52,462 nt of DNA from Armatimonadota bacterium (GTDB lineage Bacteria; Sysuimicrobiota; Sysuimicrobiia; Sysuimicrobiales; Humicultoraceae), in assembly GCA_037443365.1 (NCBI GenBank), contig JBBIOM010000011.1, positions 1 through 52,462 on the forward strand, written 5' to 3'. The notes beneath the pieces are model-generated. The model was not told the DNA's origin and made no database searches. It saw nothing but the letters and a program-made list of their open reading frames with translations. Numbering within the stretch: position 1 is the first letter of the stretch; every line of letters begins with the position of its first letter. A program made the position numbers and the translations under genes. Shown here one piece after another: positions 5,157-19,027 of this stretch.

Positions 5157-5957
5157 ATGCCCAGGTCCAACACCGTCACCGAGATAGAGATCAAGGTATT
5201 CGACCGCCCGCGCGCGTTCGCGTTTCGCGGCCGGTCGCTGCGCGCGCTGTCCGCGGCGCTCCGGCGTGAGGTCGCGGGCGCCGGGGGATACCTGGGCCGG
5301 ATAGCCGGCGTGCTCGACGCCCTTGCCGCCGCGGGGTGGCGCTACGCCATCTTCCGGGGACAGAGCGTCACCCTGACGCACAGCCATGCACCGGACAGGG
5401 TGCTGATCGAGGCGTTTCTCGCCGAGCGGTTTGGCCCCGACCTGCTGGAGCGGATCACCATTCGCGAGCGCACAAACCGACCGACGCCCAGGCCCCCGCG
5501 CCTGCCCAAGGCCGACGATGAGATGAGCCGCGAGCTGCGGCGCCTGATCGGCGCCGACAGCCACAAGAAGGACCTGTATCTGGGGCACCCGACCGAGGAG
5601 CTGGCCGAGCTGCTGCTGGACATGAGCTTCCTGGCGCAGGAGGCCCTCGACGACCCGGAGGTGTCGCGGCTGCTCGACCGGACCCAGTCCGAGCACGAGG
5701 AGGACGCGCAGTACCGCGATCTGCACAGCCGCTATCTCTCGCTGACGGAGCGCACCGGCATGGGGCACCCGGCCGCCGAGGAAGCGTACTGGGACCTGTT
5801 CTCCTACACGTCGCGCAAGCTTTCTAGACTGATCCCGGCGCTCCGGTCGTTCCTGGAGCGCCGGGGTTTTGACGATCTGTGCGAGCACGAGGCCACGGCC
5901 TTCTTCACCGCGGCCCTATCGCTGGCACTCTCCGCCATCGAGGCGGACGAGCCCTAG
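5157..5957 (+). CDS. Hypothetical protein
   Basis: Long ORF with host-like codon usage and a globular-looking sequence; no recognisable motif. Confidence 0.7.
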   Translation: MPRSNTVTEIEIKVFDRPRAFAFRGRSLRALSAALRREVAGAGGYLGRIAGVLDALAAAGWRYAIFRGQSVTLTHSHAPDRVLIEAFLAERFGPDLLERITIRERTNRPTPRPPRLPKADDEMSRELRRLIGADSHKKDLYLGHPTEELAELLLDMSFLAQEALDDPEVSRLLDRTQSEHEEDAQYRDLHSRYLSLTERTGMGHPAAEEAYWDLFSYTSRKLSRLIPALRSFLERRGFDDLCEHEATAFFTAALSLALSAIEADEP

Positions 5958-7063
5958 CCCGGCGCGCGCAGCGTCCGGACCGCCTCCCCGACTACCACCT
6001 GCAGCGCAGCCGCCACCGGTACGGCCAGCAGCGCGCCGAGAATGCCCATTAGCTTGGCGCCGACCATGATCGCCACGATCGTCAGCAGCGGCGAGAGCCC
6101 CACGGTCTGCCTCATCACGCGCGGCACCAGGATGTGCCCCTCGGCCTGCTGGATCACGGTGAAGAATACGACCACGGCCACGACCTGCCAGACCGACCCG
6201 AAGAGCGATACGATCACTGCGGGGATGGCGCCCAGCACCGGTCCTATCATGGGGATCAGCTCGGTTATGCCAGCGGCCAGGCCCAGCAGGAGCGGATAGG
6301 GAAGCCCGATCGCCCATGTTCCCAGGCCGGCGGCTACGCCGATGATGAGGCCGAGCAGCAACTGCCCGCGCAGCCAGCCGCCGAACTTCTCACCGATGTT
6401 CCCCAGCACGACCTCGATGCGCGGCCGGTGAGGCGGGGCGAAGAGCCCGAGGAATCCCTGCTTGATGCCCGGTCCCTCCAGCAGCATGTAGATGCTAAGA
6501 ACCAGGGCCGTGATTGCCGACACAACGACGCCGAAGACGCGAAACGCCACACCGGTGGCCGCGCCCACATACTCGGTGAGGCGGCCGGCCTCGTACGGAA
6601 GGCGATCCAGCAGGGCGGCCAGGTCCGGCAGCCAGGCGTAGCGCTGCTGCAGGCCCGCCAGCATTCCCAGCAGGCCCCTGTGGATCTCAGGGGCCTTGGC
6701 CGCAAACTGTCGCGACTCGGCCACTATCGGCGCCACCAGCAGGCCGCCCGCGAGCACGAGTGCTGCGACCAGGCCCAGATAGACCACGGCGATCGCACCC
6801 GAACGCGGCAGACGCCACCGCCGTCGCGTCCATTCGCGCCCCGCCAGCCGCTCGACCGCGGGCTCCAGGCCGGTCGCCAGGATCGCGGCGACCAGGATCA
6901 CGACCAGGATCTCGCCCACCGCGATCAGCAGACGAACGGCGCCCACAACGGCGATCGCCACAAGCACGACGATGGAAGTCCCGACCACCATATCGAATCG
7001 CGAGACCAGCGCGGTCACCCCCTCGGCGGTTGGTGATGCTGCTTCTCGGACGGACCGCCTCAA
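5954..7063 (-). CDS. AI-2E family transporter
   Basis: Multiple TM helices; WLRGQLL, ELIPMIGP, QQAEGHILVPRVM and GALLAVP motifs. Start is uncertain (alternatives 7018, 6991). Confidence 0.9.
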   Translation of the reverse strand: MRRSVREAASPTAEGVTALVSRFDMVVGTSIVVLVAIAVVGAVRLLIAVGEILVVILVAAILATGLEPAVERLAGREWTRRRWRLPRSGAIAVVYLGLVAALVLAGGLLVAPIVAESRQFAAKAPEIHRGLLGMLAGLQQRYAWLPDLAALLDRLPYEAGRLTEYVGAATGVAFRVFGVVVSAITALVLSIYMLLEGPGIKQGFLGLFAPPHRPRIEVVLGNIGEKFGGWLRGQLLLGLIIGVAAGLGTWAIGLPYPLLLGLAAGITELIPMIGPVLGAIPAVIVSLFGSVWQVVAVVVFFTVIQQAEGHILVPRVMRQTVGLSPLLTIVAIMVGAKLMGILGALLAVPVAAALQVVVGEAVRTLRAPG

Positions 7064-8749: not shown

Positions 8750-9475
8750 CTACGGGTTCAGCCACAACAACAGGTTCTTGATCGCCACGAAGAGCAACGT
8801 CAGCGCCAGCACGCGCCGCACCTGCTCGGGCAGCAGCCGATGCGCGCCGATGCGCGAACCGACGAGCCCTCCCAGGAGCGCCGCCACCACGAGCGGCCCC
8901 ATGTCTCCTACCACGAAGGTACCGCGCGCCACGCGCCCGGCCAGCGCCGCGATCGAGTTGACCACGATGAACACGGCCGAGGCCGCCGCGGTCTGCTTCG
9001 CGCCGGCCCATCCCGCGAGGATCATGAGGGGGCTCAGGAATATGCCCCCTCCGATCCCGACGATGCCCGAGAGGATCCCGATGCCGGCGCCGGACGCAAG
9101 CGCCACCGGAAGGGCAACAGGCCTCGGCGCCCGTTCAGAGGGAGTCCACCAGAGCCGCACGGCAGCCGCCAGCAGCGCAGCGCCCAGCAGCAGCGTGTAG
9201 GCGCGCGGGGAGACGCGCAGCCATCCGCCCAGGTACGCCGACGGGATCGATGTGATCGCGAACGGCCAGACCAGCCGGGGCGAGAGATGCCCGGCGCGCG
9301 CGTAGGTGACCGTGGCTACCCCCGCAACGAGCACGTTGAGCAGCAGCGCGCTGGTGGACATCTCGGCAGGGGGAACGCCGAAGAGGCTCAGGATGGCCAG
9401 GTAGGCGGAGGCCCCGCCGTGGCCCACGGACGAGTACACGGCCGCGGCCAGGGCGACAAGCAGAAACAATAGCAT
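8750..9475 (-). CDS. Sulfite exporter TauE/SafE family protein
   Basis: YSSVGHGGASAYL and SGIVGIGGGIFLSP internal repeat; hydrophobic throughout. Confidence 0.9.
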   Translation of the reverse strand: MLLFLLVALAAAVYSSVGHGGASAYLAILSLFGVPPAEMSTSALLLNVLVAGVATVTYARAGHLSPRLVWPFAITSIPSAYLGGWLRVSPRAYTLLLGAALLAAAVRLWWTPSERAPRPVALPVALASGAGIGILSGIVGIGGGIFLSPLMILAGWAGAKQTAAASAVFIVVNSIAALAGRVARGTFVVGDMGPLVVAALLGGLVGSRIGAHRLLPEQVRRVLALTLLFVAIKNLLLWLNP

Positions 9476-9550
9476 GCCTGTATGGTTCGCAACGCTCGCG
9501 CGGACTCCTACTGAAGGAAGGACCGGCGCGCGCACCGAAAGTCGCTGGTT

Positions 9551-10297
9551 GTGGCCGACGGGCAGCCGATAATCGTCCTTGAGGACGTGCACAAGTGGTT
9601 CGGGAACCTGCACGTCCTGCGCGGCATCAACCTGGCCGTGAGCGCTGGCGAGGTGGTCGTCGTGGCCGGGCCGTCCGGGTCGGGCAAGTCCACGATGATC
9701 CGCTGCATCAACCGCCTCGAGGCGCACGACCGGGGGCGCATCGTCGTGGACGGGACCGAACTCACGGACGACCTGCGCAACGTGGACGCCGTGCGCAGCG
9801 AGGTGGGCATGGTCTTCCAGTCGTTCAACCTGTTCCCCCACCTGACGGCGCTGCAGAACGTCACGCTGGCGCCGATCCAAGTGCGCCGCCAGACCCGCGA
9901 GCGGGCCGAAGGGAGCGCCCGCGACCTGCTGGCGCGCGTCGGCATCCCTGAGAAGGCCGATACATACCCATCGCAGCTCTCGGGCGGCCAGCAGCAGCGG
10001 GTCGCGATCGCGCGGGCGCTGGCGATGCAGCCCAGGATCATGCTCTTCGACGAGCCCACCTCGGCGCTCGATCCGGAGATGATACAGGAAGTGCTCGACG
10101 TCATGCGCGACCTGGCGCGGGGCGGGATGACAATGATAGTCGTCAGCCACGAGATGGGGTTCGCCCGCGAGGTGGCGGACCGGCTGGTCTTCATGGACGA
10201 GGGCGCGATAGTCGAGGAAGGGACGCCCGAGCATTTCTTCACCAACCCGAAGGAGGAGCGCACCCGGATCTTCCTGTCCAAGATCCTGCATCAGTAG
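9551..10297 (+). CDS. Polar amino acid ABC transporter ATP-binding protein (GlnQ-like)
   Basis: [43 protein letters not shown] and SHEMGFA. Confidence 0.95.
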
Positions 10298-10299
10298 AC

Positions 10300-11262
10300 A
10301 TGAGACGGAATCAGAGAGAGATCATTGACGCCCACCTGCACCTGAGCACGGCCACGATGCTCCGGCGTCAGCGCGATCGGGCATCGGCTGTACGCGCCGC
10401 GGCACGGGAGCGCGCCCGAATGCGCGGCCTCTCCTTCCAGGAGCGGATCGCGCATCTCGAGGGAATCACGCTGGCCGAGCAGGCGCAGATGTGGCTGGAC
10501 GGCTTCGATGCAGCGGGGGTCTCCTGCGGGGTCTTCATCGCCATGGGCGAGGCGCACGACGACCTGGCCGAGTTCATCGCGCTGCGGCCCGACCGGCTCT
10601 ACGGCTGCGGCTCGCTGCTGGACCCCACCCACCCGGACGCGGCGCGGATGGTGCGGGGGTTCCCCGCGAAGGGGTTCCGGGCACTCAAGCTCTACGCGCC
10701 TGCCTACCGGGTGGCGCTCAACGACCGGCTGGTCTATCCGGTATACGAGGCCGCTGCCGAGTGCAACCTGCCGATAATCATCCACTTCGGCATCACCGTG
10801 GGGGCGTTCTACGATCTGACCTTCGCCAACCCGCTGGCGCTCTCGGCCCCGGGCAGGGAGTTCCCCGACGTCACGTTCATCGTGGCCCACTTCGGCGCCG
10901 GCTTCCTGCGTGAGACCATGCTGCTGGCCTATCACACCGAGAACATAGCCGTGGACACCTCGGGCACGAACAACTGGCGCGCCTACACCCCGGGCGAGCC
11001 CTCCCTCGAGCAGGTCTTCAGGGACGCGGTGCGAGCCTTTGGCCCGTCGCGCATCCTGTTCGGCACCGACTCCACCTACTTCAGCGGATATCGTGGCGAG
11101 CTCGTGGCCGAACAGACGGGGATCGTGGAGAGGCTCGGCCTGAGCGACGACGAACAGGCCTTGATCCTGGCCGGAAACGCGCGGCGGATCTTCGGCATCG
11201 CCGCCGGGCGCGCGTCTGTCCCGCCCGGGCGGCCTGAAGCCGGCCGAAAACGGGAAGAATAA
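10300..11262 (+). CDS. Amidohydrolase family (amidohydro_2) metal-dependent hydrolase
   Basis: IIDAHLH, LKLY, IIIHFG, IVAHFG and ILFGTDS. Confidence 0.9.
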   Translation: MRRNQREIIDAHLHLSTATMLRRQRDRASAVRAAARERARMRGLSFQERIAHLEGITLAEQAQMWLDGFDAAGVSCGVFIAMGEAHDDLAEFIALRPDRLYGCGSLLDPTHPDAARMVRGFPAKGFRALKLYAPAYRVALNDRLVYPVYEAAAECNLPIIIHFGITVGAFYDLTFANPLALSAPGREFPDVTFIVAHFGAGFLRETMLLAYHTENIAVDTSGTNNWRAYTPGEPSLEQVFRDAVRAFGPSRILFGTDSTYFSGYRGELVAEQTGIVERLGLSDDEQALILAGNARRIFGIAAGRASVPPGRPEAGRKREE

Positions 11263-11273
11263 CTCTAGAGACC

Positions 11274-12431
11274 ATGGCCGTCATCGAGCCGGCAGAGACC
11301 CAGACCGCAGCCGGGCCAGCCATCTACCACGTGGCCGACGTGCGCCTGGGAGGCGCGTTCCCGTTTCTGGGGGACGCAGGGGCCGCGCATCGTGTTGCTG
11401 TGCGCGAGGCCTTCGTGCGGTCCGTGGATCAGGGCCTGCTCCTCGCCCCTGACCTGGTGCTGATCACCGGAAACCTGTTTGGAACACCGCAGCCCCCGCG
11501 GGATCTGGGCGAGTTCGCGCGGGCGCAGATCGAGCGCTTCAGTGGGCGCGGCATACCGGTGCTGGTGGCGGCCGGGCCGCTCGACGCCTGCTGCGAGAAG
11601 ACCTACGCCATGGGGGCGCTCTCCGACATGGAGCGGGTAGCGGTCTTCCCGGAAACGCCCAAGGCGGTGGAGCTGCGCGATCTTGACATGACGGCTGTCG
11701 GCGTGTCCTGGGGCGCGGCGCCGGCGCAGGCCGAGGCGCTGGCGGCCATCGCCGCCTACCGGCACGTGCGCCGGCTCGTGGGCGCGCTGCACATAGAGGT
11801 TCCCGATTCCGAGGAGGGCCTCCGGGCGCTGCGCCGACAGATCGCGGCATCGGGCGCCGCCTACCTGGCACTGGGAGGTTCGCCGGTGCGGCGCGATCTC
11901 TCAGCCGGAACGGTGACGGCCTGGTGCCCGGGAGCCCCTGAGGTGGTGGCCCCAAAGGAGGGTGAGGGCTCGCCCCTGCTGGTCCGGTTCGGGAACGGAG
12001 CCGCGGCCCAGCCCGAGATGGTGGTGCGGCCGGTTCCAGTGGCGCAGAGGAGATTCGTGCGGCACACACTGGAGCCCGCGGCGTTCATCTCGATCGGGGA
12101 CCTGGCCGGCGCGATCCAGGCGTTGGCCGATCCCAATCACGCCGCCGTCGTGCACCTGCGCGGGGGCTCCCGCATCAACCAGTTCATTGACACAGACGAG
12201 TTGCGCCAGCGCATGGCCGGGGAGTTCCTTGCGCTGGAGATAGTGGATGACTCCGCGCCGTCGGCGTCCGAACTGGAAGCAGCGGCATACCCCGATCTCT
12301 CGGTGGCGGGCAGGTTCGTAGCGGTGGCGCGATCAGAGATGGCGAAGGCGCCGGATCCGGAGGCCGCGCGCCGCGTGGGGTCCGCGCTGCGGCTGGGGCT
12401 CTGGCTGCTCGAAGGAAGGCACCATTCATGA
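11274..12431 (+). CDS. SbcD/Mre11/YhaO-like metallophosphoesterase-fold protein with degenerate active site
   Basis: Motif scaffold is preserved but substituted: HVADVRLG, ITGNLFG, AAGPLD, GALH, LALGGSP, WCPGAPE; overlaps the downstream SMC-like ATPase by ATGA. Confidence 0.8.
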   Translation: MAVIEPAETQTAAGPAIYHVADVRLGGAFPFLGDAGAAHRVAVREAFVRSVDQGLLLAPDLVLITGNLFGTPQPPRDLGEFARAQIERFSGRGIPVLVAAGPLDACCEKTYAMGALSDMERVAVFPETPKAVELRDLDMTAVGVSWGAAPAQAEALAAIAAYRHVRRLVGALHIEVPDSEEGLRALRRQIAASGAAYLALGGSPVRRDLSAGTVTAWCPGAPEVVAPKEGEGSPLLVRFGNGAAAQPEMVVRPVPVAQRRFVRHTLEPAAFISIGDLAGAIQALADPNHAAVVHLRGGSRINQFIDTDELRQRMAGEFLALEIVDDSAPSASELEAAAYPDLSVAGRFVAVARSEMAKAPDPEAARRVGSALRLGLWLLEGRHHS

Positions 12432-14560
12432 CGATCACGCAGATCCGGCTGCGCCGGTTCAAGCGCTTCGCCGAGTGGCAGGCAGATCTGGACCCCGGGC
12501 TGACGGTCATCCGCGGACCCAACGAGGCCGGCAAGACCACGCTCATGGAAGCGGTCTTGGAGGGGCTCTTCGGCAACCCGGCGCGGGGCGCGGGCGTCGC
12601 GCGGCTGCGTTCGTGGGGAGAGTCGCGCCTGGGCGAGATCACGATCGGGATGCGAACAGGCGAGGGCTGCTTCGTGCTCCGAAAGGATCTGGAGGCCGGC
12701 ACGATCCTCCTGCAGCGCGAGGGCGGCGGGGACCGCGTCGAGACCCTGCGCGAGGTCCAGAAGCGTCTGCTGGAGTGGATCGGGCTGGCCACCGAGGACG
12801 CCTATCGGGCCACGGCCTTCGTCGCGCAAGGCGACATAGCGCGCGTCGGCGAGGACCGTCACCTGCTCGGTGCCCACCTCTCGCGCGTCCTCGCCGGCGC
12901 CGGGACCGAGGGCGTCGGGGGCGCGCTGCGGTGGCTCGCCGAGCAGCGAAACCGGCTGGCCGCGGACCTGCCCGGTGGCGGTGGCGCGGCCGACCGCGCC
13001 ACTGAGCTGTCGGGAAGGCAGGGCGCGGCGCGGCAGCGCGAGGAGCGTGGGCGGCGCCACCGCCTGGAGTTGCGCGAGGTCGCGGCAAAGCTGGAAGCGA
13101 TGGAGCGCGAGGCGGGCGAGAGGGCCGAGCTCGCGCGCGTCGCGCGGTGGGTGGCCGATCTCCAGCGCCGGGAGCAGGCGTTGGTAGAGGAAGAGGCCGC
13201 GACCAGGGAGCACCTCAAGCGCGCCGAGGGGCTGCTGGGGCGCCTGACCAGGATCGAGGCAGGTCTCGCGGAGTTCTCGTCGCAGCAGGAAGCGCTGATC
13301 GCCGAGCTGTTTCAGGCGCGCCGTCAGTACCTCGGTGTGGAATCGGACCTCCGCGAAGGACGCGAGCAGGCCATACGGGAAGAGCGCCTCCTGGAGCACC
13401 TGGCCACGCGCCACCAGGCCGCGGCAAGGGTGGCCGGCGCGGCGTGGACGCTGGCCGGCAGCGGCGTGATACTCATCGCCGGGGGCGCGCTCATCGCGGC
13501 CCTCCTGCGCCACTGGATCGGATGGGTGCTGCTGGCCGCGGGCGGAGTGGCGGCGGTCGTGGCACTGCGCTACCGGGATCGCATCGGCCAGGCCGGGGCG
13601 ATCTACCGGGCGCAGGAGCAGCGGGTGTTGGACCTGCGCCGCCGAGTCGCCTCGTTGCAGGATCAGATAGCCCAGGCCGGTGAGTTGGTGGCGACGCGCC
13701 TCCGCGCCGCCGGGGGCACGGAGATCGAGGAGGTCGAGCGTCGGTTCTCGGGCTACATGGAACTGCTGCGCGAGCGCGAGGAGGTACGGGCGGCGCTGCG
13801 GCAGATCCGCGGCACCGATCCCAAGGCGGCGCTGGAAGGCCGGTTGCGCGAGATCGCGGACGAGCTCGCGTGCGTGCGAGCGACGATCGGCGCGCAGCCC
13901 AGGGGAACCAGGCGGCTGCCGCCCGGCGGCGTAGAGCAGATGGAGCGCGAGGGTCGAGAAGCCGCGGGCATGCTCGAGGATCTGCGGGCCAGGCGCGCGC
14001 GCCTGGAAGGGGTCCTGGAGGAGCTGTGTAAGCAGGGCGAGGACGGTCCTCGCCTGAGCGAGGAGATCGCCGTCCTGCAGGCCAGGGCCGTCCGAGCGGC
14101 GCAGTTCACAGAGGTAATCACGCTGGCCGCGCGCATGCTGGAAGAGGCCAGGGCCAAGAGCGTCTACCCCGCAAGGGAGCTGCTGGAGCGGCGGGCCGGG
14201 CAGTACCTCTCGCTGGCCACCGCTGGGGCGTACGGCAGGGTGTCGGTGGACGAGCGCACGCTCAGGGCGCAGGTGTGGATGCCGGCTGCCGGCGGCTGGA
14301 AGGAGGCGGGCGACCTCAGCCAGGGAACCAGCGACCAGCTCTACCTCTGCCTGCGCCTGGCGCTGCTCGACGTGATCACCGGCGATCGCCGGCCCCCGCT
14401 GTACCTCGACGAGCCGTTCGCGCACCTCGACGCGGGACGGCGCAGCGCGATGCTCGCGCTTCTCGCCGGTGCGGCGCGGGACCGTCAGGTGGTGCTGTTC
14501 ACCTGCTCGCCCGAGTGCGACGCCGCCGCGGATCGCGTCATCGTGCTGGAACCCGCATAG
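12428..14560 (+). CDS. YhaN/SbcC-like SMC-family ATPase with central transmembrane hairpin
   Basis: Walker A GPNEAGKTT, Q-loop FVAQG, coiled coils, two TM helices mid-protein, signature LSQGT, Walker B/D-loop LYLDEPFAHLD and QVVLFTC. Confidence 0.9.
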   Translation: MTITQIRLRRFKRFAEWQADLDPGLTVIRGPNEAGKTTLMEAVLEGLFGNPARGAGVARLRSWGESRLGEITIGMRTGEGCFVLRKDLEAGTILLQREGGGDRVETLREVQKRLLEWIGLATEDAYRATAFVAQGDIARVGEDRHLLGAHLSRVLAGAGTEGVGGALRWLAEQRNRLAADLPGGGGAADRATELSGRQGAARQREERGRRHRLELREVAAKLEAMEREAGERAELARVARWVADLQRREQALVEEEAATREHLKRAEGLLGRLTRIEAGLAEFSSQQEALIAELFQARRQYLGVESDLREGREQAIREERLLEHLATRHQAAARVAGAAWTLAGSGVILIAGGALIAALLRHWIGWVLLAAGGVAAVVALRYRDRIGQAGAIYRAQEQRVLDLRRRVASLQDQIAQAGELVATRLRAAGGTEIEEVERRFSGYMELLREREEVRAALRQIRGTDPKAALEGRLREIADELACVRATIGAQPRGTRRLPPGGVEQMEREGREAAGMLEDLRARRARLEGVLEELCKQGEDGPRLSEEIAVLQARAVRAAQFTEVITLAARMLEEARAKSVYPARELLERRAGQYLSLATAGAYGRVSVDERTLRAQVWMPAAGGWKEAGDLSQGTSDQLYLCLRLALLDVITGDRRPPLYLDEPFAHLDAGRRSAMLALLAGAARDRQVVLFTCSPECDAAADRVIVLEPA

Positions 14561-14594
14561 CAGTCCGTCGAGGCGCTGGTAGGGGGCCTCTGAA

Positions 14595-15641
14595 GTGAGA
14601 GTGCACACGCGGCTCCACCGTAAGGCCGACGGTCGCCGTCTGCTGCTCTACGGCACCACCCCCCACACCCTCTCGCCGCTCGAGGAAGGCCCAGGCGCGT
14701 CCGAGGGTCAGGTGCATCTCCGCTGGCACCCGCTGCGCGAGGAGTGGGTGGCTTACGCGGCCGGCCGCCAGGAGCGGACACACCTGCCGCCCGCGGAGTT
14801 CTGCCCGCTGTGCCCCACGCGGCCGGGCAGACCGCCCACCGAGATCCCGTACGAGGATTTCGAGATCGCCGTATTCGAGAATCGGTTCCCTGCTCTCGTG
14901 GCCGAGCCGCCCGATCCGCCCGGGGTCGCGGCGCAGACCTCGCCGGCCGCCGGGGCCTGCGAGGTGGTTGTCTACACCGCGGCGCACAGCGGCAGCCTGG
15001 CCACGTTGTCGCAGGAGAGGCGCGAGCTGCTCGTGCGCACCTGGGTCGAGCGGTACCGCGAGCTGTACGCGCGCGAGGACGTCCGGTTCGTGATGCCGTT
15101 CGAGAACCGCGGCGAGGCCACAGGCGTCACGCTCCACCATCCTCACGGGCAGATCTATGCCTACCCTTTCATCCCTCCGGTGCTCCAGGCGGAGGTCGCG
15201 GCGTTCCGCCGGGAGACGGTGTTGAGTGATCTCCTGACCAGGGCCGGCGGCGAGTATATGGTTGAGGAGGATGACGCCACAGCGGTGATGGTGCCGCCGT
15301 TCGCGCGCTTCCCCTACGAGGTCTGGGTGTTCCCGAAGCGCGTCCAGCCCGGGCCGTGGGCTCTGGAGGATGTCGAGGTAGCTGCCCTGGCTCGCGCGTT
15401 GGGGAGAGTCGTGGCGCGCTACGACGCCCTCTTCGCGCGGCCCTTCCCCTACGTGATGGCGCTGCACGCCGCGCCCAGAGGCGAGGAGGAGCACTTCCAC
15501 TTCCACGTGGAGTTCTATCCTGTCATGCGCGGGCCGGACCGGCAGAAACACCTGGCCGGCACCGAGCTCGGGGCCGGCATGTTCACTGCCGACATCCTCC
15601 CTGAAGACGCGGCGCGTGCACTGCGGCGCACCGAGCCATGA
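14595..15641 (+). CDS. galT: Galactose-1-phosphate uridylyltransferase
   Basis: LRWHPL, CPLCP, FENRFP, FENRG and HPHGQ catalytic motif. Confidence 0.95.
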   Translation: MRVHTRLHRKADGRRLLLYGTTPHTLSPLEEGPGASEGQVHLRWHPLREEWVAYAAGRQERTHLPPAEFCPLCPTRPGRPPTEIPYEDFEIAVFENRFPALVAEPPDPPGVAAQTSPAAGACEVVVYTAAHSGSLATLSQERRELLVRTWVERYRELYAREDVRFVMPFENRGEATGVTLHHPHGQIYAYPFIPPVLQAEVAAFRRETVLSDLLTRAGGEYMVEEDDATAVMVPPFARFPYEVWVFPKRVQPGPWALEDVEVAALARALGRVVARYDALFARPFPYVMALHAAPRGEEEHFHFHVEFYPVMRGPDRQKHLAGTELGAGMFTADILPEDAARALRRTEP

Positions 15642-16657
15642 GCGAGGCCGCAAGCGAGCCGTCCGGGCCCACCGAACCGTGGGAGGTCTGCGCGCAGGCC
15701 CCGGGAAGGGTCAACCTGCTGGGCGAGCACACCGACTACAACGAGGGCTTCGTCCTGCCGATGCCGCTCCGGCAGGAGACGCGCGTGCATGCGGCGCGGG
15801 CCGATGGCGTGGTGGAAGCATACGCCGAGATCTTCGATGAGCGGCATTCACGCAAACCCGGCGCCCCGCGCGGGGGCGGTTGGATGGACTACGTCTCGGG
15901 TTGCGTGTGGGCCCTCAAACAGGAGGGCATCGCGCTTCCCGGCGCGAGGTTCCGCGTTGAGCGCGGGGTGCCGCTCGGCTCAGGGCTGGCCAGCTCGGCC
16001 GCGCTTGAGGTCGCGGTCCTGCGCGCGCTGCGGACGCTGTACGAGATCCCCCTGGACGACCTGCGTCTTGCGCTGATCGCCCACCGGGCCGAGGTCGAGT
16101 ACGTGGGCGTGCGCTGCGGCGTGATGGACCAGATCGTCGCGTCGCTGGGAAGGCACAACCAGGCCCTGTTCCTGGACACGCGCGATCTGCGGTACGAGTG
16201 GGTTCCCATACCCGCGGGTTATCGGTTCGAGGTCGCCGACTCGGGCGTCCCCCGGCGGCTGGCCGAGGCCGGCTACAACCGCCGCCGCGCCGAGTGCGAG
16301 GAGGCAGCGGCGCGCCTGGGCGTGCGCTCCTTGCGCGATCTCGCCTTCGGCGACCTGGAGCGCATTGCCCGGCTGCCCGAACCGCTCGGGCGCCGGGTGA
16401 GGCACGTGGTCGGCGAGAACGCGCGCGTCCTGGCAGGCGTCGGGGCGCTGCGCTCGGGGGATCTGCGGACGTTTGGACGGCTGATGCTGGAGTCGCACCG
16501 ATCCCTGCGCGACGACTACGAGGTCTCGACGCCTGAGCTCGACCGCCTCGTGACCCAGGCGATGGAGCAGGGTGCCCTGGGCGCGCGCCTGACCGGGGCC
16601 GGCTTCGGCGGAAGCATTGTGGCGCTGGTGGCAGTCAGCGCGGAAGCGCCACCGTAA
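15638..16657 (+). CDS. galK: Galactokinase
   Basis: APGRVNLLGEHTDYNEG, PLGSGLASSAA, CGVMDQ and GARLTGAGFGG. Confidence 0.95.
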   Translation: MSEAASEPSGPTEPWEVCAQAPGRVNLLGEHTDYNEGFVLPMPLRQETRVHAARADGVVEAYAEIFDERHSRKPGAPRGGGWMDYVSGCVWALKQEGIALPGARFRVERGVPLGSGLASSAALEVAVLRALRTLYEIPLDDLRLALIAHRAEVEYVGVRCGVMDQIVASLGRHNQALFLDTRDLRYEWVPIPAGYRFEVADSGVPRRLAEAGYNRRRAECEEAAARLGVRSLRDLAFGDLERIARLPEPLGRRVRHVVGENARVLAGVGALRSGDLRTFGRLMLESHRSLRDDYEVSTPELDRLVTQAMEQGALGARLTGAGFGGSIVALVAVSAEAPP

Positions 16658-17798
16658 ACCTGCTCCCCTCCCCTGCTCGGCTCTCCACCCACACGCGCCC
16701 GCCATGCGCCTCGACCAGCGACTTCACGATGGCGAGCCCGAGCCCGGAGCCGCCGCTTGCGCGTGAGCGCGAGGCATCCAGCCGGTGGAAGCGGTCGAAG
16801 ATCCGATCCCTTTCCTCCGGAGGGACGCCTGGCCCGGTATCGGCCACCCAGAGCCGCAGCTCGGATGGGTCGGCTTCCAGGCCTACCGTGACGTCTCCGC
16901 CCGCGGGAGTGTGCCGGATCGCGTTCTCGAGCAGGTTGTGCACAACCTGCATCATGCGCTCGCGGTCCACGCTGAGCACGGGCAGCCCAGACGCCATCCT
17001 GCTCTGCACGGTGACGCTCTTGTCTGCAGCGTGCGGGGCCACCGCCGCCGCGGCGTCGGCCACGAGCGCGGCCAGATCCGTGGGCGCACGGTGCAGCGGC
17101 AGCCGGCCTGCCTGCGCCAGCGAAAGGTCGCGCAGGTCCTCGACGAGCCGCGCCAGCAGACGCACCTGTGTGTGAAGCGCGGCCAGCCGTTCGGGCGCAG
17201 GCTCCACGACGCCATCCAGCATGCCTTCCAGGTTGGCCTGCAGCACAGACAGGGGTGTGCCGAGCTCGTGCGCGATGTCGGCGACCAGGTTGTGGCGGAG
17301 CTCTTCAAGCCGCCTGAGATCAGCGGCCATGGTGTTGAAGGCGCGCGCCAGGTTGCCCAGGTCGTCATCCGAGGGCACCGGCACTTCCTGGGCCAGGTCA
17401 CCCTGACCTATGCGGCCGGCGGCGACCGACATGCGGCGCAGCGGGGTCGCAAGATACCGGGCCATGAGGACACCCAGCAGCACCGCGGCCAGGCCCCCGG
17501 CAACGGCGGCCAGCCAGGTCGTGCGGCGCATCTGCGCCAGGAACCGCAGCTCCTCGGGTCCCATCATGCGCTGCATCATGCGGCGCATCTCCTCGGGGCT
17601 TGCCACGTGCGGCATTCGGCGCCGCAAGATGCCCTCGGGAGCGGACGGGCCGGGTGGGGGCAGCATCATCGGGCCGCGCAGGAAGTAGTGATCGAACTCG
17701 GCACGGATCGTGGCGCTCGAGATGACGCCCACCGCGGCAACGGAGACCAGGGCCACGGCCACGAAGGCCAGGATCAGCCGCCCCTGGAGGCTAGTCAC
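16635..17798 (-). CDS. Sensor histidine kinase (HAMP-HisKA-HATPase, BaeS-like)
   Basis: Two TM helices with a Met-rich loop, HAMP, DIAHELGTP, NLLENA, DTGPG and GSGLGL; start GTG overlaps the regulator stop. Confidence 0.93.
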   Translation of the reverse strand: MTSLQGRLILAFVAVALVSVAAVGVISSATIRAEFDHYFLRGPMMLPPPGPSAPEGILRRRMPHVASPEEMRRMMQRMMGPEELRFLAQMRRTTWLAAVAGGLAAVLLGVLMARYLATPLRRMSVAAGRIGQGDLAQEVPVPSDDDLGNLARAFNTMAADLRRLEELRHNLVADIAHELGTPLSVLQANLEGMLDGVVEPAPERLAALHTQVRLLARLVEDLRDLSLAQAGRLPLHRAPTDLAALVADAAAAVAPHAADKSVTVQSRMASGLPVLSVDRERMMQVVHNLLENAIRHTPAGGDVTVGLEADPSELRLWVADTGPGVPPEERDRIFDRFHRLDASRSRASGGSGLGLAIVKSLVEAHGGRVWVESRAGEGSRFTVALPR

Positions 17799-18483
17799 GG
17801 GCGGGCTCTGCCAGGCGGTACCCGGCGCCGTGCACGGTGAGCACGTACCTGGGCCGGCGGGGATCGGGCTCGAGCTTGTGCCGCAGGTTCTTGACGTGCG
17901 CGTCGATCGTGCGCTCGTAGCCCTCGAAGGCGTGGCCCTGGACGATGTCAATCAGCTGGAGACGCGTGTAGACGCGTCCGGGTGAGCGGGCGAGCGCTGC
18001 CAGCAGCCTGAACTCGGTCGGTGTAAGGGCAACCGTGGTGCCGCCCCGGCGGACCTGCATGCGGGCATGGTCAATCTCAAGATCCCCAACGGTTGTGGCC
18101 TCGATCGGCGCCTCGCCGCCGGTGCGTCGCAGCACGGCCCGCACCCGGGCAACTACCTCGCGGGGGCTGAAGGGCTTCGTGATGTAGTCGTCGGCGCCGA
18201 GCCCCAGGCCGAGCAGGCGATCCACCTCTTCCCCTCGCGCGGTGAGCATGATGATCGGCGTGCGCCCATCTGCGCGGATCTGACGCGCGACCTCCCAGCC
18301 GTCCACCTCCGGCAGCATCAGATCCAGGATCACGAGATCGGGCCTCTCGCGCCTGAAGGCCGCCAGCGCCGCCCGTCCGTCGGCGGCGCTGGCAACGCGA
18401 TAGCCGTCCCGCTCGAGGTACTTGCGGACAACGTCCGTGATCTCGGGCTCGTCGTCCACCACCAGGACTGTGCGCCGGCTCAC
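17791..18483 (-). CDS. OmpR-family response regulator
   Basis: VVDDE, LDLMLP, KPFSPRE, winged helix RTIDAHVKNLR and TVHGAGY. Confidence 0.95.
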   Translation of the reverse strand: MSRRTVLVVDDEPEITDVVRKYLERDGYRVASAADGRAALAAFRRERPDLVILDLMLPEVDGWEVARQIRADGRTPIIMLTARGEEVDRLLGLGLGADDYITKPFSPREVVARVRAVLRRTGGEAPIEATTVGDLEIDHARMQVRRGGTTVALTPTEFRLLAALARSPGRVYTRLQLIDIVQGHAFEGYERTIDAHVKNLRHKLEPDPRRPRYVLTVHGAGYRLAEPARD

Positions 18484-18529
18484 CTTCGCTTCGACCCCCC
18501 GCGCTTCGACCTCCCGGCCCTGCGGCGCG

Positions 18530-19027
18530 CTACGGGGCCACGACGATCCGTCCGGCCATGCCGGACTCGCGGTGCCCCGTGATGCTGCAGAAGAAGGCAT
18601 ACGTGCCCGGCCGGACGGCCCGAATCGCGCCCGCAGCCGTCTGCCCTGGTGGGGCAACGAGCCGGAAGCGCAGTCCCGGCACGGTGATGTCGTGCACGAC
18701 ATTCCCCTTGTTCACCAGGCTGATGTTGACCACCTCGCCGGTCCTGATCTGCACCTCTACCGGATTGAACGAGAAGTCCGCCGCGACGACCTCAACGGTC
18801 CGGGCGCCGGGGGCAGGCGGGAGCGCCCATGCGCCCATCCCAGGCCGGGCCCAGGGCCCGCGCACGTGATGCCGCCACATGCCGCCTGGCACGGGCCAGC
18901 GGTCCGGGCCCCACCCGCTTCCAGGGGCTCCATCCCATGCGGCCCTGCCCACGCAGAAGAGCCCGATGACACCGACTACGATCAGCGCAACACCCAGCAA
19001 CACTAGGTTTCGCATCGCCCTGTTCAT
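18530..19027 (-). CDS. Membrane-anchored cupredoxin (type 1 copper)
   Basis: N-terminal TM helix; VHD...FFCSITGHRESGM supplies His/Cys/His/Met ligands. Confidence 0.88.
   Translation of the reverse strand: MNRAMRNLVLLGVALIVVGVIGLFCVGRAAWDGAPGSGWGPDRWPVPGGMWRHHVRGPWARPGMGAWALPPAPGARTVEVVAADFSFNPVEVQIRTGEVVNISLVNKGNVVHDITVPGLRFRLVAPPGQTAAGAIRAVRPGTYAFFCSITGHRESGMAGRIVVAP

Follow-up and report, generated by a model that had tools for sequence, protein, structure and literature searches.

We describe here a conserved gene pair from an Armatimonadota bacterium, in which a protein with the Mre11/SbcD fold has very probably become a pseudo-nuclease subunit and is encoded directly upstream of a Rad50/SbcC-like ATPase. 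The two open reading frames, ORF1 and ORF2, lie in a stretch of 52,462 nucleotides (contig JBBIOM010000011.1 of assembly GCA_037443365.1, hereafter the window) with a G+C content of about 70%, which is contig C11 of a 69-contig, 2.22-Mb genome with a completeness estimate of 97.7%. Judged by sequence, the pair belongs, as a derived paralogue, to the SbcF-SbcE (YhaO-YhaN) branch of Mre11-Rad50-type complexes. A repurposed, non-nucleolytic complex, as a first-pass annotation of the window had proposed, appears to be the best reading, because the di-metal site is lost and the loss is clade-wide, fixed and under purifying selection. The SbcE/SbcF (YhaN/YhaO) kind of complex is known, and its conserved, recurrent, natural nuclease-dead form is the new part; the term "undescribed system" used in the annotation was too strong for a derived branch of a described kind.

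The elements of the pair are the following.

11274..12431, forward strand: ORF1, 385 residues, putative pseudo-nuclease of the YhaO/SbcF-like branch, with a phosphodiesterase domain, a capping domain and a C-terminal helix pair
12428..14560, forward strand: ORF2, 710 residues, Rad50/SbcC-like ATP-binding cassette (ABC) ATPase of the YhaN (AAA_27) type, with a split head, an antiparallel coiled coil and a hydrophobic apex
12428..12431, forward strand: ATGA overlap shared by the stop of ORF1 and the start of ORF2; 13 of 14 related loci and 67 of 84 loci of the phylum have a 4-nt overlap here

The list of open reading frames confirms both genes, free of frameshifts and internal stops, as well as the ATGA junction, all of which had been annotated.

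Fold and metal site of ORF1

The AlphaFold2 (AF2) model of ORF1, built from an alignment of 67 relatives, has a predicted local distance difference test score (pLDDT) of 88.5 and a predicted template modelling score (pTM) of 0.84, and it bears out the annotated full SbcD/Mre11 scaffold. All listed Foldseek matches in the PDB are Mre11/SbcD proteins, the best being P. furiosus Mre11 (3dsd_A, E 4e-14); they include M. jannaschii Mre11 (template modelling score 0.60/0.72) and E. coli SbcD (E 3e-9). At the sequence level, ORF1 is 30% identical (E 1.7e-18) to the intact relative P0072, which carries PF00149, and with an ORF1 profile 8401 representatives are found at E<=1e-3, of which 333 reach E<=1e-30. 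Together with the tree, this profile search puts ORF1 inside the family whose intact members precede YhaN-type ATPases in the phylum. No Pfam family matches ORF1 at E<=1 and the genome-wide PF00149 scan misses it too; 69 of 72 word-indexed ORF1 homologues (54-78% identity) likewise have no Pfam domain. The best Mre11 match in NCBIfam has an E-value of 0.18 and 11 bits against a cut-off of 500, matches to PDB sequences stay at chance level (best E 1.2), and both ORF1 and ORF2 score far under the cut-offs of the curated SbcD, SbcC and Rad50 models.

The motifs of ORF1 were read against P0072 and 61 intact relatives of the same phylum, and this alignment confirms the annotated changes DVR, GN, GPLD and GGSP.

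11328..11351, forward strand: motif I, HVADVRLG; DVR where intact relatives have DxH; Asp22 kept, His ligand replaced by Arg24
11466..11483, forward strand: motif II, TGNLFG; GN where intact relatives have GD; bridging Asp replaced by Asn67, second Asp by Gly70
11568..11588, forward strand: motif III, AAGPLDA; GPLD where intact relatives have G[NT]HD; Asn ligand replaced by Pro102, catalytic His by Leu103; Asp104 kept
11775..11795, forward strand: motif IV region, LVGALHI; His173 aligns with the motif IV His
11865..11894, forward strand: motif V, LALGGSPVRR; GGSP where intact relatives have G[HD]xH; ligands replaced by Gly202 and Pro204, followed by a fixed Arg206

The replacement residues recur throughout the 67-row alignment, in which Arg24 and Asn67 are each found in 64 rows, Leu103 and Gly202 each in 62, and Pro204 in 52. 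In the clade of 20 genomes that share this state, called dead below, Arg24, Asn67, Gly70, Ser203 and Arg206 are 100% conserved, and Leu103 and Pro204 90%. Intact relatives have the motif I His and the motif II Asp at 100%, and the second Asp (the Gly70 column) at 90%. Taking the ligand set, by analogy, to be that of P. furiosus Mre11, which we assume to hold here, ORF1 is without five of seven metal-ligand positions and without the catalytic His. These replacements support the view that ORF1 would be unable to act as a canonical di-metal nuclease, and it was not filed as an Mre11/SbcD nuclease because the catalytic-motif test turned out negative.

We find it very unlikely that ORF1 remains a nuclease or phosphodiesterase through alternative ligands, for example with one metal held by Asp22, Asp104, His173 and Asn67. 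Such residual catalysis would agree with the retention of Asp22 and Asp104 in nearly all members, with His173 in this genome and with the strict conservation of the new residues. However, the column of His173, which reads "HG" in 67 of 67 intact rows, varies in the clade (H 21, Y 21, C 13, A 6, S 3 and F 2 in 67 rows), and, with Arg, Pro, Leu and Gly now at five places once held by ligands or the catalytic residue, a second metal site is not plausible. Moreover, Pfam Metallophos is blind to ORF1 at E<=1. The annotated statement that only the first Asp and the motif IV His remain holds in that Asp22 and His173 are present, but it has to be amended for Asp104, which is kept too, and for the variability of position 173.

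The best conserved segment of ORF1 in the dead clade (mean conservation 0.81) lies at its C-terminus, and both peptide patterns picked by the locus search fall within it.

12303..12410, forward strand: C-terminal helix pair, residues 344-379 (model helices 344-358 and 362-379), at the place of the Rad50-binding helix-loop-helix of Mre11

Prediction of a complex between ORF1 and the two head halves of ORF2 gave a score of 0.82, but one control reached 0.67, and the result is given no weight in either direction.

Conservation and selection

The comparison of orthologues indicates that the loss is clade-wide, fixed and under purifying selection, and that the locus is not decaying. An orthologue of ORF1 occurs in 16 species-representative genomes labelled Armatimonadota, Ca. 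Fervidifonticultor (filed under Candidatus Sysuimicrobiota) or Ca. Nitrosymbiomonas. All 14 related loci long enough to hold the ATPase gene have ORF2 downstream, as do 84 of 88 loci of the phylum, and the identity of the two proteins to those of the window runs in parallel, at 54-77% for ORF1 and 57-79% for ORF2.

The median ratio of nonsynonymous to synonymous substitution rates (dN/dS), computed with the Nei-Gojobori method (NG86), which is unreliable at this GC content, is 0.28 for ORF1 (136 pairs, maximum 0.52) and 0.26 for ORF2 (105 pairs), and that of ORF1 stays at 0.27-0.32 across all three dS bins. In the bin of dS 0.05-0.5, which is the most reliable, the dead genes give 0.31 (14 pairs) and the intact ones 0.16 (15 pairs), a difference of about twofold that, like the limits of NG86, counts against the reading of a maintained, repurposed protein. 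At higher dS the intact set gives 0.47-0.56; because the bins disagree, no claim of relaxed or of equal constraint is drawn from the comparison of dead and intact genes.

A gene in recent decay, a pseudogene that has yet to acquire stops, would also have lost its catalytic motifs and could show the doubled ratio of the low-dS bin. We give this explanation almost no credence. The frame is open in all 20 dead-clade genomes, which span eight genera, with no stop or frameshift in any of their ORF1 genes, and ORF1 has diverged no faster than ORF2. With dN/dS at about 0.3 and replacement residues conserved at 90-100%, the open frames refute decay. The orthologue comparison that the annotation had asked for thus finds the substitutions throughout the clade; intact close orthologues with dN/dS near 1, which it had named as the sign of decay, were looked for and are not what was found.

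In one orthologue of ORF1, that of genome G029 (L045, G029:C144), about 27 residues are inserted in frame between profile positions 250 and 241-overlap.

Phylum survey and paralogues

The ORF1 profile was searched in 94 genomes of the phylum, of which 83 have a match at E<=1e-10; every match was fetched and its motif columns were scored, which gives three states.

Dead: DR / NG / P-L-D / G-S-P; 20 genomes of 8 genera, all of the window's family (f1)
Partial: DH / D[AG] / E-A-D / G-S-H; 7 genomes of genera g4, g5 and g6, plus a second copy in G023
Intact: DH / DD / N-H-D / D-W-H; 61 loci, in families f3-f7 and in the f1 genera g4, g5, g6 and g8

Dead and partial rows form one clade in the tree, with a value of 100 in the Shimodaira-Hasegawa-like approximate likelihood ratio test (SH-aLRT), and the dead rows are a nested clade, again with SH-aLRT 100; these clades stand apart from the intact copies of the same family. 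Genome G023 carries one dead and one partial copy. The intact pair co-occurs in five of the seven partial genomes, the two exceptions being 68% and 59% complete, and lies in other genomic contexts than the dead pair, while an intact YhaO-type copy at E<=1e-10 is found in none of the 20 dead genomes. According to the simplest history, a paralogous pair would have arisen and, beside an intact pair, have lost motif III together with one half each of motifs II and V; the remaining ligands would have been lost later, and the intact pair would have gone from the dead lineages. Two genomes flagged as unpublished are included in these counts, G025 among the 20 dead genomes and G017 among the seven partial and the five two-copy genomes, and the conclusions are independent of both. 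The single amidohydrolase gene upstream of a partial copy (L049) comes from G017 alone.

Two side observations concern the intact genes. The intact nucleases of the phylum (L051-L113) have G-D-W-H and not G-H-x-H in motif V, a variant that at least 32 of the 149 best representatives share. In G074 (L111, G074:C215; genome 64% complete) the gene of intact type runs over two frames, owing either to a frameshift or to an assembly error.

DNA could still be processed if the dead ORF1 recruited, or heterodimerised with, an active nuclease acting in trans, either Mre11-like or unrelated, and a partnership with an active paralogue had been put forward in the annotation. The partial sister lineage, with its intact pair in five of seven genomes, fits this idea, and it is the only lineage that does. 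The window's genome also has a second Mre11-like gene (contig C17:39698-43758; L008:699-4759, minus strand), which encodes 446 residues with a Metallophos match of 43.8 bits and has intact motifs GD, GNHD and GHWH, with DWQ instead of DxH in motif I. This gene is followed by its own ATPase, a 907-residue SMC-like protein without CxxC and without a hydrophobic apex, whose best PADLOC match is LmuB (E 4e-17). Genes of the C17 type are strongly matched only in the window's genus (five of seven genomes in addition to its own genome) and in one distant genome; the other eight matches at E<=1e-20 fall at places matched by the ORF1 profile, and seven of them, on motif-scored contigs, are intact YhaO-type loci. 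The C17 pair is probably accessory and laterally moving, because its strong matches are restricted in this way. The proposed search for a second active sbcD thus did return a gene, but one with a deviating motif I and a nearly genus-restricted distribution. Furthermore, of five dead-clade genomes that belong to other genera and are nearly complete, four have no match to the SbcD model TIGR00619 (E<=0.01) and the fifth has one of 24 bits. Because of these silent genomes and the narrow distribution of the C17-type gene, the dead pair does not generally stand beside an active Mre11-type nuclease. With no intact copy in the dead genomes, we regard a nuclease in trans as quite unlikely.

The same kind of loss is found outside the clade. 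Among the 143 best representatives there, 127 keep all six checked ligand positions, 16 are without at least one and 6 are without at least three. A separate lineage, P0265, P0328 and P0339, again has DxR and GN, and a relative of P0328 (70% identity) on a low-GC metagenome contig reads DIR / GN / GNRD / GGQP; the next gene on that contig encodes a 714-residue ATPase with Walker A and a central hydrophobic hairpin. The approximately unbiased (AU) test rejects a tree with a single origin of all "dead" rows (p 0.006), in a comparison for which the group was named after the tree was seen and which involves long branches; because of this rejection, the DxR/GN/GGxP combination appears to have been reached at least twice. 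P0265 has, in addition, a weak match to PF04042 (E 0.0015). P0261, P0279 and P0336 also count among the degenerate lineages.

The ATPase partner and its hydrophobic apex

The N-terminus of ORF2 matches Pfam AAA_23 (43.6 bits) and AAA_27 (PF13514; 38.9 bits against a cut-off of 22), both over cut-off, and ORF2 matches the NCBIfam Rad50 model PRK03918 with an E-value of 8.6e-18. Its AF2 model (pLDDT 82) has a split head and two long helices (187-334 and 364-577), with a helical hairpin turn at residues 360-363, and the best Foldseek match is Rad50 (7zr1_D, E 2.3e-20). Nearly all ORF2 homologues carry a precomputed PF13514 domain, and several are named "YhaN" or "SbcCD subunit" by their sources. 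The following motifs were located by comparison.

12515..12541, forward strand: Walker A, GPNEAGKTT; GPNEAGK[TS]T in 57 of 65 close homologues
12812..12835, forward strand: Q-loop, TAFVAQGD
13439..13573, forward strand: two hydrophobic helices, residues 338-382, with an R-H-W loop and then RYRDR; predicted membrane hairpin in place of a zinc hook
14315..14338, forward strand: signature, LSQGTSDQ
14399..14431, forward strand: Walker B and D-loop, LYLDEPFAHLD; catalytic Glu662 present
14495..14515, forward strand: H-loop position, LFTCSPE; Ser694 where distant YhaN proteins have His (LFTCH)

The annotation of an intact ATPase is upheld for Walker A, the Q-loop, the signature and Walker B, but not for the H-loop. 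Every aligned ATPase of the phylum (loci L056-L110), the partners of intact nucleases included, has S, W, R, T or D in place of its His. In the 65 close homologues the six commonest Walker B patterns all read LDEP. The ATPases of the dead and partial lineages have LDEP, whereas the partners of intact nucleases in the phylum have LDDP; the partner ATPase has therefore changed too.

The apex of ORF2 reaches a Kyte-Doolittle maximum of 2.28 over 19 residues and is modelled as helices 336-359 and 364-427, and a CxxC zinc hook is not found among the six Cys of the protein. Thus the two annotated transmembrane helices replacing a CxxC hook stand as a hydrophobic hairpin without CxxC, but they are a trait of the YhaN family that also occurs beside intact nucleases. 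Indeed, a hydrophobic segment in the middle of the protein is seen in 114 of 120 YhaN-type homologues of ORF2, including proteins of 800-1000 residues from Proteobacteria and Firmicutes; because of this, the apex is not special to the locus. None of the 57 listed of these 120 homologues has CxxC, and the intact nucleases of the phylum are likewise followed by ATPases of 700-750 residues with a central hydrophobic segment. The apex hairpin is therefore outside the repurposing and belongs to the ordinary build of YhaN/SbcE-type ATPases. Its family-wide presence suggests that these complexes may work at the membrane.

Genomic neighbourhood

The pair is surrounded by metabolic and housekeeping genes. 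Upstream are an ABC ATPase and an amidohydrolase; downstream, galT starts 34 nt past ORF2 in the window and galK comes next.

9551-10297, forward strand: GlnQ-like ABC ATPase, upstream of ORF1
10300-11262, upstream of ORF1 with an 11-nt gap: PF04909 amidohydrolase, kept at that place throughout the dead clade
16635-18702, reverse strand: histidine kinase and response regulator, beyond galK

Of the 20 dead-clade loci surveyed in the phylum, 13 have the order ABC ATPase, amidohydrolase, ORF1 and ORF2, and the other seven have at most 1.4 kb of upstream sequence. The flanking genes are 71-92% conserved, which is higher than the ORF1-ORF2 pair itself. No yhaM-like gene follows ORF2 at the window locus. 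In several related genomes (L012, L019 and L023) a histidine kinase gene comes directly after ORF2.

An anti-phage or anti-plasmid role, in which the complex would be a membrane-tethered sensor of incoming DNA with its effector encoded elsewhere, is highly improbable, and a defence role finds no support at the locus. A position at the membrane would suit surveillance of entering DNA, and ORF2 has PADLOC matches to mad3 (4.6e-20), LmuB (1.2e-9), PtuA and GajA, the last two N-terminal. However, the LmuB, PtuA and GajA matches span about the first 45 residues and that to mad3 residues 424-709, and ORF1 has no PADLOC match. There is no effector-like gene among the neighbours of the pair in the window, and the context, from the ABC ATPase and amidohydrolase to galT-galK or the histidine kinase, is conserved and vertically inherited across eight genera.

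Two neighbouring genes were considered as further parts of the system and rejected. The upstream PF04909 amidohydrolase is not retained as a TatD-like nuclease in trans, its TatD match (E 0.022, 14.6 bits) being under the cut-off and NCBIfam giving none. In the closest three species, a 378-residue MR_MLE gene of the enolase superfamily overlaps the ORF2 stop by 4 nt (L009:6420-7556, L010:4130-5266 and L011:9437-10573); as an enolase-superfamily enzyme found in three congeners and missing from the window, it was rejected as a third subunit. After the MR_MLE gene, L010, the sole locus scanned, has a MazF/PemK-like ORF (5629-5976) and L011 has an ORF of 115 residues at the matching place; the MazF/PemK-like gene is absent from the window as well.

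A 513-residue ORF on the reverse strand (8750-10291) overlaps the ABC ATPase gene. The C-terminal part, at its 3' end (about 8750-9500), is the one stretch that is hydrophobic and resembles a genuine membrane protein, and the rest is likely an artefact of ORF calling at high GC. A scan of positions 9000-17000 for promoters and terminators gave no promoter-like signal and one terminator-like signal, the latter on the opposite strand; these counts do not exceed what shuffled sequence would give, and the scan is uninformative at 70% GC. A search for RNA runs listed none; it gave 4 DNA runs of a single study and carries no information on expression.

Relation to known systems

Both subunits match the folds of SbcCD and Mre11-Rad50 complexes (E. 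coli 6s85 and 7yzo, P. furiosus 3dsd, M. jannaschii 3av0). The likeness extends to Walker A, the Q-loop, the signature and Walker B of ORF2 and to the C-terminal helix pair of ORF1. Unlike these complexes, the pair has a hydrophobic hairpin for the zinc hook, has no nuclease metal site and is without the H-loop His. It also differs from the anti-phage systems with SMC-like ATPases (Lamassu, MADS, Gabija, Septu and PARIS), with no full-length two-gene match and no effector gene.

Non-catalytic proteins of the phosphoesterase fold have precedents. In eukaryotic and archaeal replicative DNA polymerases, the B subunits are inactivated calcineurin-like phosphoesterases that serve as structural subunits. 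They resemble ORF1 as scaffolds of this fold in a DNA-handling complex, but complex and partner are different and the homology seen here goes no further than the superfamily; the weak PF04042 match of P0265 is the only trace of them in this analysis. Engineered nuclease-dead alleles of Mre11 in yeast and mouse still form the complex, tether and signal, so that Mre11-Rad50 complexes have structural functions independent of the nuclease, on which the dead clade would depend. These alleles are point mutants made in the laboratory, whereas the loss described here is natural, involves several residues and is fixed in a putatively membrane-anchored bacterial branch. A literature search, in which subscription journals were not covered, returned no naturally dead SbcD or SbcF, no membrane-anchored Rad50-like protein and no membrane reading of the YhaN apex. 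On the SbcE/SbcF (YhaN/YhaO) family itself it gave one experimental study, PMC2811018, and one mention of review type.

The closest described system is SbcE-SbcF (YhaN-YhaO) of B. subtilis. Its gene order is the same, a nuclease-like gene followed by that of an SMC-like ATPase. According to Krishnamurthy et al. (2009, PMC2811018), SbcE has no CxxC, and its central domain is insoluble and hydrophobic in its first half; SbcE and SbcF interact in a yeast two-hybrid assay, and SbcE is located at the poles of competent cells. ORF2 resembles SbcE in the absence of CxxC and in the hydrophobic domain between the coiled-coil arms, SbcE being compared by its description in that report and ORF2 by its AAA_27 match. 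By contrast with SbcE-SbcF, the SbcF-like ORF1 is without phosphoesterase motifs, no yhaM-like gene follows, and the H-loop His is absent.

Proposed mechanism

We propose that ORF1 is a pseudo-nuclease scaffold in a membrane-anchored, ATP-driven DNA clamp of the SbcEF type, an explanation that, taken as a whole, we hold with moderate confidence. Because the metal residues are lost and the protein is nevertheless kept intact across species, the complex probably does not cut DNA but holds or senses it at the membrane. ORF1 would no longer cut DNA and would stay as a dimeric scaffold that also regulates the ATPase heads; with its conserved pair of C-terminal helices it may bind the base of the ATPase coiled coils, and it may gate the ATP-driven engagement of the heads. 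The ATPase dimer would be hung from the cytoplasmic membrane by its apex hairpins, the coiled coil of about 148 residues placing the heads some 20 nm into the cytoplasm. There the complex could clamp or tether DNA in an ATP-dependent manner without processing it, most likely ends or incoming or broken DNA; this DNA-tether part is advanced more tentatively, and we would not be surprised to see it fail. Arg24 would probably occupy the empty metal site, pairing with Asp22 and Asp104.

The complex might instead not work on DNA at all, the ABC ATPase acting on the membrane or envelope in remodelling, scaffolding or signalling and the Mre11-like protein being a regulator with a dispensable nuclease site. 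The family-wide conservation of the hydrophobic apex, the loss of the nuclease site at least twice while the pair was kept, the metabolic and housekeeping context and the phylum-wide absence of the H-loop His are all consistent with such a role. On the other hand, a complete Mre11-type site is kept in 127 of 143 family members and the Mre11 capping domain is present in the fold. In B. subtilis, moreover, sbcE mutants are described in PMC2811018 as sensitive to double-strand breaks and less transformable. We consider a role away from DNA unlikely.

Several further points weigh against the proposed DNA clamp. A weak one-metal site may exist in ORF1, because Asp22, Asp104 and, in this genome, His173 remain. 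ATP turnover may be slow or atypical, because the H-loop His is missing. Coupling alone is no proof of a complex, because in these compact genomes unrelated neighbours overlap by 4 nt too, as do ORF2 and the enolase-superfamily gene, or galT and galK. DNA binding, membrane insertion, ATP hydrolysis and the ORF1-ORF2 contact are inferred from sequence and models, in uncultured organisms, with a membrane apex that is ordinary for the family, and little is known about what even the intact YhaO-YhaN family does.

A broader proposition, doubtful when all its parts are taken jointly, is that the essential job of SbcEF-type complexes would be the nuclease-independent, ATP-driven holding of DNA at the membrane. 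Selection would have revealed this at least twice, through His to Arg in motif I, Asp to Asn in motif II and GGxP in motif V. In family f1 the dead pair would have arisen as a paralogue next to the active one, then replaced it and left most genera with an Mre11-Rad50-type machine but without an Mre11-type nuclease, with Arg24 as a mimic of the lost metal.

Significance

Mre11-Rad50-type complexes are usually treated as nucleases, and their cutting and their clamping or tethering roles have been studied through engineered nuclease-dead alleles. The locus described here offers a natural version in which several residues are lost and the loss is fixed and long kept, in most carrier genomes as the sole Mre11-like gene, and which arose again independently. 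It also draws attention to the family-wide hydrophobic apex of YhaN-type ATPases. With this natural version, the role that the poorly understood YhaN/YhaO (SbcE/SbcF) branch plays independently of a nuclease can be tested directly, and intact, half-degenerate and dead pairs from one phylum form a matched set for comparative biochemistry.

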